Source: a virus (taxonomy: Duplodnaviria > Heunggongvirae > Uroviricota > Caudoviricetes). Taken from it: a stretch of 64,000 nt of DNA. Made by a program: the position numbers and the translations under genes. The notes below the pieces were generated by a model. That model was not told the origin of the DNA, searched no databases, and was given only the letters and a program-made list of their open reading frames with translations. Numbering within the stretch: the stretch's first letter is position 1; each line of letters opens with the position of its first letter. The stretch spans positions 109,828-173,827 of IMG/VR virus record IMGVR_UViG_3300007747_000008; one strand, 5' to 3'. Positions 5,514-63,365 of this stretch are shown here, piece by piece.

Positions 5514-6947
<1,434 letters not shown>

Positions 6948-6985
6948 TTATTATAAACGTATTTAGGTGATTTAGGCATTTTTTC

Positions 6986-7014
6986 GGGACAAACTATTCA
7001 CTTTGTGATATAAT
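6986..7014 (+). promoter_or_regulatory. GGGACA-N17-TGTGATATAAT promoter
   Basis: GGGACA at 6986-6991 and TATAAT at 7009-7014 with a 17-bp spacer. Confidence 0.5.
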
Positions 7015-7043
7015 AAAGAACGTACATAAAACGAGGTTTACAC

Positions 7044-35769: not shown

Positions 35770-36264
35770 ATGTTTGAATGGGATCATAAACAACACTATG
35801 ATCCTACCGAAGACGGTGTAACTCATATTAATACATATAGTAAGGGTAAAACCGAATTGGGGAGGATGCTATCAAATTTTGCATACTCCCCTTTTGTATA
35901 TGCACCATATGGAAAGTTTAATTCAGTTGAAGGATTTTACTATTGGTACTTAACTGGTCAAAAACATGATGACTTGAGAACATTAAGCGGAACATATGCA
36001 AAGGTTCAAGGTAGGAAGTATGAAGTTGATAGGACTGAACATGTTCTATCGGAAGATACAATAGAAATAATGCAAGGTGCAATGATATGCAAGATTGCAC
36101 AGAATAAAAAACTACAAGAAATGTTAATTTCCAGTACTCTTGAATTTACACATTATTATGTGTATTTTGGTAAAGTCATAAATCCATTTGATGGTTATGA
36201 TTGGTTTTCTGATACACTGGAGGATATAAGAACAGCTTTAAAATCTGGGACAGATGACATTTAA
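35770..36264 (+). CDS. NADAR/YbiA-like (DUF1768) protein, putative ADP-ribose N-glycohydrolase
   Basis: LSNFA, YGKFNSVEGFYYWYLTGQ (YbiA: DGKTWPTSEHYFQAQKF) and the helix IMQGAMICKIAQNKKLQEML. Confidence 0.6.
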   Translation: MFEWDHKQHYDPTEDGVTHINTYSKGKTELGRMLSNFAYSPFVYAPYGKFNSVEGFYYWYLTGQKHDDLRTLSGTYAKVQGRKYEVDRTEHVLSEDTIEIMQGAMICKIAQNKKLQEMLISSTLEFTHYYVYFGKVINPFDGYDWFSDTLEDIRTALKSGTDDI

Positions 36265-36275
36265 TGTGATATAAT
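36247..36275 (+). promoter_or_regulatory. GGGACA-N17-TGTGATATAAT promoter driving the ncRNA
   Basis: GGGACA at 36247 and TATAAT at 36270-36275. No ORF is adjacent. Confidence 0.55.
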
Positions 36276-36281
36276 ATTAGA

Positions 36282-36703
36282 ATAATTGTGGATGCGTTAG
36301 CATATGATTTAAACCTAGTCCCTCGAAAAGTAGAGGGTAGATGAGCATGACCACACATGCGAAGTGCAGATGAAACCCGTACGCGGCAATGTGGCACTCT
36401 AAATGGACACGTAAGGCACGTTAAGTCCACTTGATAGACATATGAGGTCACTCACCAAAATGCTAAGGGAGACGCTTAGGCGTCACATACAAGGCTTGTT
36501 CGAATAGGCTTTGTGTGAGTGTAGTAAGACTACGACCGTTGCACATGACCGTGATAGGGAGAAACAGAGCAACCCGCTTCCGTTCCCTGACCATTTTAGT
36601 ACGCTATAGTTGCGTCTAAAATTCAGAGAAATTCACGATTCGAAAATTCCGAGGCTACCAGCGTCAGAACATTAATTCAGTACATTAAGTTGTACTTTTT
36701 TAT
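36282..36703 (+). ncRNA. Structured ncRNA of about 420 nt, family unknown
   Basis: GC content is locally raised. Numerous perfect hairpins are present (CCCTC..GAGGG, GGACACGT..ACGTnnGTCC, CTAAG..CTTAG, GTAGT..ACTAC). The 5' end GATGC..TAGC can pair with the 3' end GCTA..GCGTC. It has its own promoter and terminator and no ORF of 60 aa or more. Confidence 0.55.
36678..36703 (+). terminator. Rho-independent terminator ending the ncRNA
   Basis: AGTACA-TTAAGT-TGTACT followed by TTTTTTATT. Confidence 0.6.
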
Positions 36704-36866
36704 TGTCTTCAGTCCCCCAGTGGGGGATGAAATTGCCTCTCAAACCTCGTCAGTATTAAAAGTACAATAATGAATTGAGTTACGATAATACGAACGGAGT
36801 GAGTATTAAGAGTAACGAGAATTCTTTGGCTATCGAAGATAGACAAATTATAACTTAGGAAACAAT

Positions 36867-37160
36867 ATGATTACAGCAAAAGAATTACATGACAAAGCAA
36901 ATGAGATTGGTGATACATACATACCCGAATCGGTAATTGATTCTATGGCTGATGCCGCAAAAAAAGGATTGTACTCAATTACATTATTAGCAGATGCTGA
37001 TTTTGGAGTTGAGTGCAGAGTGAATTCTGATGCACCACAGCAACATGCTGAGTTCGATAGAATTAAAAAATGTCTAGAATCACATGGATATACAGTTGAA
37101 TTTTTATATCCATACAGTGATAATAGATTCCCTATTGTTGGAGTAATAGTGTCATGGTAA
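36867..37160 (+). CDS. Hypothetical protein
   Basis: ORF. Confidence 0.5.
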   Translation: MITAKELHDKANEIGDTYIPESVIDSMADAAKKGLYSITLLADADFGVECRVNSDAPQQHAEFDRIKKCLESHGYTVEFLYPYSDNRFPIVGVIVSW

Positions 37161-37453
37161 CTGTACAATCATTACTAAACGAACTAAACTCACTATTTTC
37201 GGGTTGGGAAGAATCAGGACACCCATATACGGATGATATACATGTTAGTCATGAACATTTTTCTGTTACGTATTCAGCACGATATAAAGATTACAGATCA
37301 GTGAGTAATGTAATTACATTTGATGAAACCATACTTAAAGGATATAGTGCTGTTTCAGCAACTGAATCAGTACGTGACTTAAAGAAACAGATAAAAGAAC
37401 AATTAGATTTAATTAAATCTATATATGAATCAATGGAAGGTAATTATGATTGA
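37154..37453 (+). CDS. Hypothetical protein
   Basis: ORF. Confidence 0.45.
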   Translation: MVTVQSLLNELNSLFSGWEESGHPYTDDIHVSHEHFSVTYSARYKDYRSVSNVITFDETILKGYSAVSATESVRDLKKQIKEQLDLIKSIYESMEGNYD

Positions 37454-40698: not shown

Positions 40699-40789
40699 GG
40701 TAGGTTGGCTGAGTCGGCCTATAGCATCTGCCTACTAAGCAGAAGATGGAGAAATCCGTCCGTGGGTTCGAATCCCACACCTACCTCCA
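40699..40789 (+). tRNA. Type II (long variable arm) tRNA, Ser-like, with an apparent anticodon ACT
   Basis: Acceptor GGTAGGT/ACCTACC, a 3-bp D-stem, anticodon stem TCTGC/GCAGA with loop CTACTAA, a long variable arm, T-arm GTGGG-TTCGAAT-CCCAC, and an encoded CCA. Confidence 0.6.
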
Positions 40790-52400: not shown

Positions 52401-52594
52401 TGAAAATTGAATCGACTTTTAATCATCCGGGTGGTGTATCTCATGTATCAAATGATACACGTTTAGTTGGTTTTCGTGTTTCAGTCACTGAAATCGAAAA
52501 GAACCACGAATCATTTAACGTCGCTAATCCAGCAATTGTCACTGAACTTGCAATTGCCCATCTTGTTTCTTTAGGATATGAGGTTACCAAATGA
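52400..52594 (+). CDS. Hypothetical small protein
   Basis: ORF with an ATGA overlap. Confidence 0.35.
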   Translation: MKIESTFNHPGGVSHVSNDTRLVGFRVSVTEIEKNHESFNVANPAIVTELAIAHLVSLGYEVTK

Positions 52595-52800
52595 GTACTA
52601 AAATTCTGTACGTGATCACGTTCAAGAAAAACGGCGGTGCCACCAAACAGTATCAAATCCCAGCAACTTCAGAAATGAATGCGGTTGCTCGTCTTGGTCA
52701 GATTCATGGTGATGATCGTGGATATCGTGAAGATCTTGATCTTGAAATTATCAGTGTGACTAGTAGTTCTAGTGGGAAAAAATATGCCGCAGATGTATAA
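52591..52800 (+). CDS. Hypothetical small protein
   Basis: ORF. Confidence 0.35.
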   Translation: MSTKILYVITFKKNGGATKQYQIPATSEMNAVARLGQIHGDDRGYREDLDLEIISVTSSSSGKKYAADV

Positions 52801-52826
52801 AATACAAAAAAAAATAGGAAAATAAC

Positions 52827-52991
52827 ATGAAAAACAACGATTTAAAATTTGATGTAACATTAACAGTTGACGAGATTAAAGAAATTGCCAATGCCCTTGG
52901 TATTGCAACGTCTGAATCTTTATTACTAGACGAAGATCTAAGTTATAAATTAATGCTCAAATTAATTGAAATTGTTCCAGAAATCGATTGA
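52827..52991 (+). CDS. Small acidic protein (54 aa), paralogue of 54734-54883
   Basis: Shared motif LT.DEI.E..NAL..A..ES. Confidence 0.35.
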   Translation: MKNNDLKFDVTLTVDEIKEIANALGIATSESLLLDEDLSYKLMLKLIEIVPEID

Positions 52992-53016
52992 CGTACCTGT
53001 GGGTATCTTCTATAAT
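52988..53016 (+). promoter_or_regulatory. Sigma70-type promoter TTGACG-17-TATAAT with an inverted repeat across the -10
   Basis: TTGACG at 52988 and TATAAT at 53011. The inverted repeat is GTGGGTAT/ATACCCAC. Confidence 0.45.
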
Positions 53017-53047
53017 ACCCACATCAACCACACTTTAAGGAACCAAA

Positions 53048-55320: not shown

Positions 55321-55326
55321 ATTATT

Positions 55327-55451
55327 GCATAGGTGGCGGAAGCGGGAGACGCCTCTGGACTAGGCCAGTAGTACTGTAATGGTGATTTCAGTACTGATAC
55401 CGAAACCGGAGTAACACGAAACTGTAGGTTCGAGTCCTACCCTATGCACCA
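55327..55451 (+). ncRNA. Non-canonical tRNA-like RNA (125 nt) lacking a recognisable anticodon arm
   Basis: It has a perfect acceptor GCATAGG/CCTATGC with an A discriminator and CCA, a D-arm-like GCG..CGC, and a T-arm GTAGG-TTCGAGT-CCTAC. A roughly 70-nt insert carries the palindromes CAGTAGTACTG and TCAGTACTGA, and no 5-bp/7-nt anticodon hairpin could be found. Confidence 0.5.
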
Positions 55452-55465
55452 TATTAAGGAATATT

Positions 55466-55573
55466 ATGAGTACTGAAGAACAAGAATGTGAAGTCTGTGA
55501 CGGGGAAGGATGGACAGTTGAAGCATGTGGTGATATAATCGATTGTACAGCTTGTCAACACTCTAAGGAATAA
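55466..55573 (+). CDS. Small CxxC...CxxC protein (35 aa)
   Basis: CEVCDGEGW....C..C. Paralogue of the next ORF. Confidence 0.35.
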   Translation: MSTEEQECEVCDGEGWTVEACGDIIDCTACQHSKE

Positions 55574-55574
55574 T

Positions 55575-55754
55575 ATGAAATCTATCTTTGATCTATTCAG
55601 AACTAAAACCAAAGAAGTCGAACACACTCATGTACCAGATGAAACCACATCTACCGACACATGTAAGTACTGTGATGGTAATGGTTGGGTTTACGCAGGG
55701 GAAGGTGTAATCGAGGATTGTCATCCATGCAAACGTTCAGGTCGTGCTAAATGA
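55575..55754 (+). CDS. Small CxxC...CxxC protein (59 aa), paralogue of 55466-55573
   Basis: CKYCDGNGW.....C.PC. Confidence 0.35.
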   Translation: MKSIFDLFRTKTKEVEHTHVPDETTSTDTCKYCDGNGWVYAGEGVIEDCHPCKRSGRAK

Positions 55755-62758: not shown

Positions 62759-62899
62759 TGAATAACAAAATTTGGAATCTAACAGCAATTAAAACTTCTT
62801 ATGCGAAAATAAAATAGATTCTAGTATGAAATCCAACAGCAACTATAAACTTTTTCTGAATAAAAAAACAAAATGGATTTCAGTTTCGATTAACATGTT

Positions 62900-63340
62900 G
62901 TTGAAAGCCTAGGGGACTTTCCCCGAACCAATACACTCTGTTCGAGTCAGGGGTCATGAAAATGATTAAGGAATAGTATTATGGCAATGGAAATGGTGGT
63001 TCGATTCCACCCGCAACACCAACCAATTTGCTGATAAATGATGGCAATTTTAGAAAGTCTCATGAGCTAACAGGCGACGGCTAGTGAATGTATTATTATA
63101 ATACAAGCATGAATCACTTTCTTTAAAAGCTGGGGCGTTGGGTACAGGTTGATCACTGTACTTGGGGGTTCGAATCCTTCTATCAGTACCAAACAATGTG
63201 TGATCATAGTTTAAAGGTAAAATATTTCTACACGCGTAGAGTTAGTGGTTAAATTCCACCATCCACAATGGCGTATCGCCGTGGAGATAGTTTAATGCAA
63301 AATACTACCCTACTGAAAAGCCCACGGTTCGATTCCGTGC
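62900..63340 (+). other. Cluster of degenerate tRNA-like segments (T-arm motifs without complete cloverleaves)
   Basis: At least five GGTTCGAnTCC-type T-arm motifs lie in 440 nt with no ORF: CTCTG-TTCGAGT-CAGGG (62937), GGTGG-TTCGATT-CCACC (62996), GGGGG-TTCGAAT-CC (63163), GTGG-TTAAATT-CCAC (63245) and CACGG-TTCGATT-CCGTG (63313). Acceptor and anticodon stems could not be completed by eye. Confidence 0.35.
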
Positions 63341-63365
63341 TCACACACCTATTTCGAGAAATATT

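Follow-up and report, generated by a model that had tools for sequence, protein, structure and literature searches.

Positions 36282 to ~36847 on the plus strand of a 64,000-nt stretch of viral DNA (positions 109,828 to 173,827 of IMG/VR record IMGVR_UViG_3300007747_000008, referred to as a whole as the window) probably form an independent gene whose product, a large non-coding RNA (ncRNA) with a compact fold, would act in trans and founds a family outside Rfam. The source is a RaK2/121Q-like jumbo phage, and its nearest records are the Salmonella phages Munch and 7t3, with ~85% identity at the RNA locus. A structured ncRNA of an uncatalogued family, probably a new phage class, had been proposed from the letters of the window (the original prediction), and this proposal is borne out by a covarying fold and by the outcome of the Rfam searches. 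A cmscan search with all 4,227 Rfam 15 families returned nothing at the gathering threshold over the whole window, and the region 36100-36950, scanned with permissive filters, gave no match even at E ≤ 10; no family match that would reclassify the RNA was obtained. Likewise, literature searches found no description of this RNA, the paper on phage CBB covering promoters only. The sequence evidence points to a new class of trans-acting ornate RNA that is apparently undescribed.

The non-coding stretch was found by blastn to be conserved in 62-71 phage records. The phages carrying it, from genera that include Asteriusvirus, Mimasvirus, Eneladusvirus and Alcyoneusvirus, have hosts in Escherichia, Salmonella, Klebsiella, Erwinia, Yersinia, Cronobacter, Serratia, Pectobacterium and Xanthomonas. 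A set of ~50 distinct homologs was assembled by scanning IMG/VR, metagenomes and GTDB genomes for sequence patterns and filtering with an nhmmer profile, which removed chance matches (most of the pattern hits on genome contigs and many of the viral and metagenomic ones). The structure, comprising 139 pairs in 24 helices, was tested on a 32-sequence alignment (A3, MAFFT/nhmmer); as controls, every 3' partner was slid by 1-3 columns, and the columns were shuffled 500 times. Canonical pairing amounted to 92.4% over the 139 pairs, as compared to 36-42% with slid partners, and 88 pairs had changed on both sides (31-41 in the slid controls). The number of compensated cells was 572, against 57-85, and the covariation score 0.383, against ~0.06 in the controls. 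None of the 500 column shuffles reached any of the observed structure statistics. Three pseudoknots (A, 1 and 2) are among the elements that covary. Conservation and covariation in related phages, proposed in the original prediction as a check, are thus both present, the latter in the form of 88 compensatory pairs.

The alignment also identifies the transcribed strand. G-U/U-G cells (357) far outnumber A-C/C-A cells (70), and the plus strand is consequently assigned as the RNA. Conversely, single-sequence folding gave a minimum free energy z-score of -3.8 on the plus strand and -4.0 on the minus strand, values so similar that they do not tell the strands apart. Such a z-score is weak evidence alone, and it is the comparative evidence that decides.

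The elements of the fold are collected in the table. Junction and loop sequences are almost invariant, and the peripheral hairpins are free to vary in length. Pseudoknot A is re-formed with different sequences in the homologs (CUGAUUGA/UCAAUCAG, ACAACGG/CCGUUGU, CUGAAAGG/CCUUUCAG and UACCG/CGGUA), and in the short helix that crosses it the column pair 94-107 is A-U in 11 sequences, C-G in 11 and U-A in 10. In the same manner, pseudoknot 1 appears in paralogs as UUGUAU/AUACAA and UCAUAU/AUAUGA, and column pair 436-460 in the domain 36550-36637 is found as AU, GC, CG and UG. P4 serves as an insertion site of 20-50 nt in other family members, and the loop region of P5 holds a largely conserved UAAGGCA-type motif. 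Three of the hairpins initially noticed in the sequence, CCCTC/GAGGG, GGAC../..GTCC and GTAG/CTAC, covary in the homologs. Two other early assignments did not survive the alignment. The CTAAG-N7-CTTAG hairpin is specific to the window, the homologs instead pairing GCUAAGGG with CCGUUGC and forming a local GACGC/GCGUC hairpin, and the 5' GATGC, thought to close on the 3' end of the molecule, belongs to a covarying local hairpin (P1) enclosed by the 5' pseudoknot. A pairing of the 5' GAUGAG, or of CUNGAUAGA, with CUCGUCAG, suggested by RNAalifold, was rejected, since GUUGAG variants, the CCCGUC of 121Q and the CUUC of RaK2 are left uncompensated. As a separate observation, a module ending in ..CCGUCYAAAAUUYRGAGAA is present as an insertion in P8 of b-type, c-type and island copies and in P13 of a-type copies, and 121Q_a has it at both sites; L007 (121Q_a) and L046 are examples in A3. 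The recurrence of the same ending at these places points to internal duplication or shuffling of RNA modules.

The 3' boundary required revision. It had been placed at a clean intrinsic terminator, giving an RNA of ~420 nt. The hairpin in question does have a covarying stem, and it is followed by U6-7 in 31 of the 32 sequences, but the stem contains only 2 G-C pairs in the window; with fewer than three such pairs, it was not called by a terminator scan at 36679-36701. Furthermore, the hairpin is absent from EJP2, from copy c of 121Q and from the whole d-type paralog group, all of which keep M1, P15 and M2. It is not the end of the conserved unit: conserved covarying structure reaches ~36847, with M2, P16 and P17 all downstream of the hairpin. 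The second hairpin recognised early on, TCCCC../..GGGGA (P15), is indeed conserved, but no pair in it has changed on both sides. In the divergent island clade, different hairpins occupy the region of the 36772-36847 tail.

The two short motifs that flank the terminator-like hairpin, M1 (CUA-Y-CAK-CGUCA-R) and M2 (AAA-Y-CU-CGUCA-R), are direct repeats ~86-87 nt apart and are not complementary to each other. Across ~45 distinct homologs they change in concert, Y being C/C or U/U and R being G/G or A/A. In RaK2 (CUACGAGCUUCAAG and AAACGCCUUCAAG) both motifs have CUUC in place of CGUC and CG in place of YC, and the 5' strand of P14 has changed from GAYG to GACAG, giving GACAG/CUUC. A third co-varying site was sought, and no other alignment column shares the M1/M2 partitions. 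Because M1 and M2 co-evolve, and because the hairpin-less paralogs keep M1, P15 and M2, the module beyond the terminator-like hairpin is taken to belong to the functional unit. M1 and M2 may pair in turn with the same CCGAYG strand, may both be bound by a single protein or RNA, or may be a pair of processing sites.

Table. Features of the RNA gene and its promoter class (window coordinates; column numbers refer to alignment A3)
Feature	Position	Strand	Sequence or content	Basis or remark
Promoter	36247..36275	+	-35-like GGGACA (36247-36252), 17 bp, extended -10 TGTGATATAAT (36265-36275)	
Extended -10 sites	4473, 7004, 16688, 36265, 40680, 42999, 59387, 61024, 61381	+	TGTGATATAAT	exact match
Core RNA	36282..36701	+	predicted short isoform, ~420 nt if hairpin + U6 terminates	conservation, covariation
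Pseudoknot A	36287..36355	+	UGUGG (36287-36291)/CCACA (36351-36355), encloses P1 and P2	covariation
P1	36292-36303	+	hairpin AUGC-GUUA-GCAU	covaries
P2	36320-36337	+	hairpin CCCTC/GAGGG	covaries
3-bp helix	36345..36360	+	G-C-A/U-G-C, crosses pseudoknot A (G36345-C36360)	100% paired
P3	36363..36398	+	AGUGC/GCACU, encloses P4	alignment helix
P4	36377-36386	+	CCG-UACG-CGG, minimal hairpin in window (columns 125-128/181-184)	alignment helix
Pseudoknot 2	36389..36441	+	AUG (36389-36391)/CAU (36439-36441)	100% paired; GC:20/AU:12 at one pair
P5	36404..36429	+	hairpin GGAC../..GTCC	compensatory changes in 7/7 pairs
P6	36443..36454	+	hairpin UGAG/CUCA	alignment helix
Junction domain	36462..36542	+	closed by P7 (GCUAAGGG/CCGUUGC), holds P8, P9 and P10	P7 putative, as it is almost invariant and without covariation
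P8	36471-36484	+		alignment helix
P9	36486-36517	+		alignment helix
Pseudoknot 1	36499..36644	+	P9 loop UUCGAA (36499-36504)/UUCGAA (36639-36644)	99.5% paired
P10	36520-36534	+	hairpin GTAG/CTAC	covaries
P11-closed domain	36550..36637	+	P11 CGUGA/UCACG (36550-36554/36633-36637), holds P12 and P13	alignment helices
P12	36557-36581	+	15-nt loop AAACAGAGCAACCCG (36562-36576)	loop almost invariant
P13	36583-36630	+		alignment helix
P14	36648..36668	+	hairpin CCGAGG/CGUCAG, carries M1	91.5% paired
M1	36655..36667	+	CUACCAGCGUCAG, within P14	concerted evolution with M2
Terminator-like hairpin	36679..36701	+	AGUACA-UUAAGU-UGUACU (36679-36696) + U6	stem covaries
P15	36708..36731	+	hairpin UUCAGUCCCC/GGGGGAUGAA	93.6% paired, one-sided changes only
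M2	36741..36753	+	CAAACCUCGUCAG, direct repeat of M1	concerted evolution with M1
3' tail	36772..36847	+	P16 and P17, tail of predicted long isoform (~566 nt)	covariation
P16	36772-36776/36820-36824 and 36779-36783/36812-36816	+		inner stem compensatory in 5/5 pairs
P17	36825-36834/36838-36847	+		compensatory in 8/9 pairs

The RNA occupies a ~600 bp intergenic gap between a 164-aa open reading frame (ORF; 35770-36264) and a 97-aa ORF (36867-37160). As initially noted, the GC content of this gap (0.47) is above that of the surroundings (~0.30-0.33), and a promoter lies directly upstream. The predicted promoter has the sequence characteristics expected for sigma-70, a TGnTATAAT box with a -35-like element at 17 bp, and GGGACA-17-TATAAT with the upstream TG scores 10/12 in a promoter scan. 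From its position we infer a transcription start near 36282. TGnTATAAT precedes every homolog for which upstream sequence was examined. The exact 11-mer TGTGATATAAT occurs 9 times on the plus strand of the window, and when one mismatch was allowed, 14 matches were found on both strands, as compared to 5.3 ± 2.5 in shuffles. It stands directly upstream of tRNA-Ser (40699), tRNA-Thr (43051) and tRNA-Ser (61582); a variant with one mismatch is found ahead of tRNA-Arg (49624). The RNA element consequently shares its promoter class with the stable-RNA genes of the phage, and the recurrence of TGTGATATAAT hints at a promoter class dedicated to stable-RNA or early genes. The window copy has a tRNA of the same promoter class ~3.8 kb downstream; tRNA adjacency is no general rule, since only 2 of 20 other loci scanned hold any tRNA. 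ARAGORN detected 4 tRNAs within the window, and it assigned the anticodon ACT (A34) to the tRNA-Ser at 40699-40789, a gene likewise annotated as tRNA-Ser in phage Munch. An A34 anticodon of this kind is unusual in bacteria and phages.

In jumbo phages of the RaK2/121Q/GAP32 type, each genome has 2-4 paralogs of the RNA, which are old and diverged. Four copies are present on one IMG/VR contig and at least three in the closest relatives of the window, and no second copy was found by blastn or nhmmer within the window itself. Phage 121Q has three, at ~192.8, 247.8 and 326.6 kb, of which copy b, on the plus strand, is flanked by endonuclease VII and gene 595, both encoded on the minus strand. In the loci compared, b-type copies always have opposite-strand neighbours, and the RNA is thus not the 5' untranslated region of a co-oriented gene in all members. 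The a-type copies, of which the window copy is one, are conversely syntenic across genera with a weakly NADAR-like gene upstream and, at 16 loci or more, with small same-strand ORFs and an ARH gene downstream. The position between two ADP-ribose-processing genes had been considered striking. The ARH assignment is solid (E=5.6e-70), but the gene is separated from the RNA by two small ORFs (36867-37160 and 37154-37453), and the upstream 164-aa protein, conserved in front of a-type copies in 15 loci, is weakly NADAR-like (Pfam E=0.016, 15.9 bits vs a cutoff of 35.1). This protein also gave a weak match to T4 gp30.3 and had no relative in the PDB by sequence. Moreover, the ADP-ribose gene context is confined to the a-type paralog, being absent at the other paralogs and at the island copies, and no protein family or cluster is shared among the different genomic contexts of the RNA.

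Copies also exist outside jumbo phages. An intact homolog (454 bits) resides in two E. coli chromosomes, within a ~10-kb island between ffs and ybaA (L259, 6655-7305; LR-29-1, NZ_AP027515.1, ~3,478,900-3,479,560), and is identical in EEC_W5. The island contains an IS3-disrupted integrase and candidate defence genes recognised by PADLOC, PDC-M45 (DuOB, DUF488) and PDC-S16, which adjoin an mSLOG-DUF4326 gene. Phage-like DNA is limited to the RNA segment, which has ~80% identity to the Eneladusvirus b-paralog and retains the TGTGATATAAT promoter. An Rfam scan of the island region returned nothing relevant. Just upstream of the island RNA gene, in a ~2-kb gap almost without annotated coding sequence, there is a GC-richer non-coding stretch (L259, 6000-6300) that may be another structured RNA. 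Members of a divergent clade, found in Citrobacter amalonaticus and in metagenomes (L131, 3510-4218, from C. amalonaticus P55; also L215, L232, L173, L242 and L158), occupy the edge of an AT-rich integrative element, where they immediately follow a large serine recombinase. This element also encodes a CI-like repressor and, downstream, a conserved ORF of 165 aa, and could be a prophage or satellite. No plasmid copies of the RNA were found. The occurrence of the bare gene in phages, in the E. coli island and in the Citrobacter-type element indicates a self-contained module exchanged among mobile elements. In combination with the opposite-strand genes on both sides of b-type copies, these intact copies argue for a stand-alone gene rather than a leader.

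According to the mechanism we propose, the RNA would act in trans via its three-dimensional fold, whether by scaffolding a ribonucleoprotein (RNP), as a decoy, by self-assembly or as a ribozyme, and would be neither the leader of a neighbouring gene nor a simple antisense RNA. The weak hairpin with its U6 tract would give rise to a short form (~420 nt) and a read-through form (~566 nt), the latter being the complete functional unit, and the two co-evolving CGUCAR motifs would either share a binding partner or take turns in pairing with the CCGAYG strand of P14. Its spread to lytic phages, to a temperate-type element and to a defence island suggests that the role is an accessory one, played where phages, hosts and mobile elements are in conflict. 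Several observations count against this proposal. The conflict role draws on just two non-phage contexts, and the synteny of the a-type copies across genera leaves room for a local, cis-linked role of that paralog. The core helices P7, P12 and P15 are invariant, so that they pair without compensatory proof. One homolog, L268, breaks the G/G-or-A/A rule of the twin motifs with G/A, and in it the base before CGUC has changed to A in both motifs. Finally, the ncRNAs observed by RNA-seq in phage PA5oct are not homologs of this RNA. More speculatively, the class might have a catalytic or self-assembling activity of its own, through self-processing at the twin CGUCA-R sites or ROOL/GOLLD-like RNA-only assembly, and serve as a weapon or shield in such conflicts. 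We regard this extension as tentative and rather unlikely; if true, it would explain why the bare gene occurs in jumbo phages that are lytic and also in a temperate-type element and a bacterial defence island.

The same features could alternatively be read as those of a cis-acting leader or attenuator, in which a sensor domain sets a stop at the hairpin and U6 tract against read-through to the small ORFs and ARH, with M1 and M2 as the switch. Such a device would fit the conserved hairpin and U-tract (31/32 sequences), the extension of sequence conservation beyond the hairpin, the capacity of M1 and M2 to alternate on the same CCGAYG strand and the same-strand a-type synteny. It is nevertheless unlikely, as b-type copies lack a co-oriented gene on either side, the island and Citrobacter-type copies have unrelated neighbours, and EJP2, 121Q_c and the d-type paralogs dispense with the hairpin. 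In addition, the promoter class is that of tRNA genes, and a fold of ~400 nt with three pseudoknots far exceeds attenuators as generally known.

The concerted evolution of M1 and M2 would also be compatible with a self-processing RNA or new ribozyme, where a single active site or guide would recognise the CGUCA-R motifs as twin cleavage or ligation sites, so that the ~86-nt segment between them is excised or matured. Their co-evolution at several positions in independent lineages resembles that of two substrates of one recogniser, and the almost invariant junctions and 15-nt loop are reminiscent of a catalytic core. No Rfam ribozyme family is matched, however, the search for a third column co-varying with the motifs was negative, and the G/A mismatch in L268 conflicts with the scheme. 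Protein binding or alternative pairing fits the same data, and we consider this reading distinctly improbable.

Only a slim chance is given to a replication-origin transcript or DNA-level element, i.e. a structured pre-primer RNA like ColE1 RNA II or T4 oriF/oriG, with an AT-rich stretch as the unwinding element, M1 and M2 as protein-binding sites, and islands that would hijack the phage replication machinery. The likeness consists in a promoter-driven, structured ~550-nt transcript that serves no neighbouring ORF and is present in several dispersed copies per phage genome, in orientations independent of the neighbours. Copies are likewise present in integrative elements, direct repeats ~87 bp apart with concerted evolution would suit paired binding sites, and in GAP32 and CBB the promoter has a TGAAACG -35-type box, which the CBB paper links to DNA-synthesis genes. 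Conversely, selection acts on RNA pairing (one-strand G-U pairs and three pseudoknots), giving a fold far more elaborate than known primer RNAs; the ColE1 and T4 transcripts are without comparable tertiary covariation. GC skew shows no switch at the RNA locus, no initiator gene is consistently adjacent, and no R-loop or origin evidence was found here.

It is very improbable that one of the large RNA families already known (RNase P RNA, tmRNA, group I and II introns, ROOL, GOLLD and OLE) includes the RNA as a diverged or permuted member. A resemblance to RNase P RNA had been suggested, and by eye there are indeed look-alikes to E. coli M1 RNA (CGACCGUUGCA..AACAGAGCAACCCGC vs CGACCAGUGCAACAGAGAGCAAACCGCC, and UAGAUGAG..CAGAUGAAACCCG vs UAGAUGAAUGA..ACAGAACCCGG). 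Size, pseudoknots and invariant purine-rich junctions are also shared with bacterial RNase P RNA (M1, RF00010), but these strings of 10-15 nt, few in number, are held by helices that are not equivalent. RNase P RNA is marked by a long-range P4 helix between CR-I and CR-V and by a J11/12 module in a P10-P12 cruciform, and neither is seen here: ACCCG pairs locally in P4 of the new RNA, and AACAGAGCAACCCG is the hairpin loop closed by P12. None of the RNase P covariance models (RNaseP_bact_a/b, archaeal/nuclear) matched at the gathering threshold or at E ≤ 10, and an nhmmer profile of the 32 homologs run against E. coli rnpB with --max gave no match at E ≤ 1000, and the resemblance was abandoned. 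The absence of a tmRNA or group I intron, noted from the start, holds: ARAGORN found no tmRNA in the window, Rfam matched neither tmRNA nor group I/II introns, and exons are lacking, a promoter precedes the element, and the ORFs on either side are distinct genes, different from locus to locus.

In terms of genomic niche, ROOL and GOLLD are the closest analogues. ROOL (RF03087), encoded by phages and prophages and sometimes located close to tRNA genes, measures ~600 nt and folds into many helices with multiple pseudoknots; it has no known protein partner or function, and both ROOL and GOLLD form RNA-only cages (PMC12286853). The likeness to ROOL, a large RNA with multiple pseudoknots in phages or prophages, is one of niche and not of homology: no covariance-model match was obtained, 2-4 paralogs per genome are present here, most copies are not near tRNAs, and ROOL hosts are mainly Bacillota and relatives, in contrast to the Enterobacteria-type jumbo phages that carry the new RNA. 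GOLLD (RF01998), likewise without a known function, is similarly large, ornate and phage-borne, with a conserved core and variable periphery, but measures ~800 nt, as compared to 420-570 nt here, and has a different architecture; the new RNA has no embedded tRNA and no match to the model. OLE (RF01071), a highly conserved multi-helix RNA of ~600 nt, works as a trans-acting RNP. It differs in being chromosomal, in extremophilic Bacillota, and in having the dedicated neighbour partners OapA-C, as opposed to no conserved neighbour protein and no model match in the present case.

That small protein genes are hidden in the gap, with incidental hairpins, can be practically dismissed, since the covariation statistics exclude chance structure, and coding is excluded by longest ORFs that vary in strand and position from homolog to homolog and by alignment-core gap-run lengths that are mostly not multiples of three (668 and 78 vs 33), even though several deposited genomes annotate short hypothetical proteins here. 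The early description of the gap as free of ORFs holds for the plus strand, where none of ≥70 aa lies within 36265-36866; a 91-aa minus-strand ORF (36176-36451) overlaps it, and no ORF is conserved in strand or position among the 32 homologs compared. The hypothetical proteins annotated across the RNA gene, on either strand, in the GenBank records of Hallingskeid, fHe-Yen9-04, 121Q, 7t3 and PHA46 are probably spurious gene calls. Elsewhere in the window, plus-strand stretches of 430-840 bp without ORFs ≥70 aa (55321-55750, 52401-53047, 62759-63365 and 6208-7043) may hold other ncRNAs; in the first of them, the GC content is 0.43 and a promoter close to consensus is located at 55529.

Recognition of the RNA would correct the annotation of many deposited genomes, in which probably spurious hypothetical proteins are called across its locus. 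It is present in cultured jumbo phages of E. coli, Salmonella, Klebsiella, Erwinia and Yersinia (121Q, PBECO4, GAP32, CBB, RaK2 and Munch), and these cultured phages, together with the natural paralog sets, the hairpin-less variants and the intact E. coli island copy, make genetics, RNA-seq, pull-downs and cryo-electron microscopy feasible. To our knowledge, the large RNAs of bacteria and phages that reach ribozyme-level complexity are very few (RNase P, group I/II introns, tmRNA, OLE, GOLLD, ROOL, HEARO and raiA), and each of them opened new biology.

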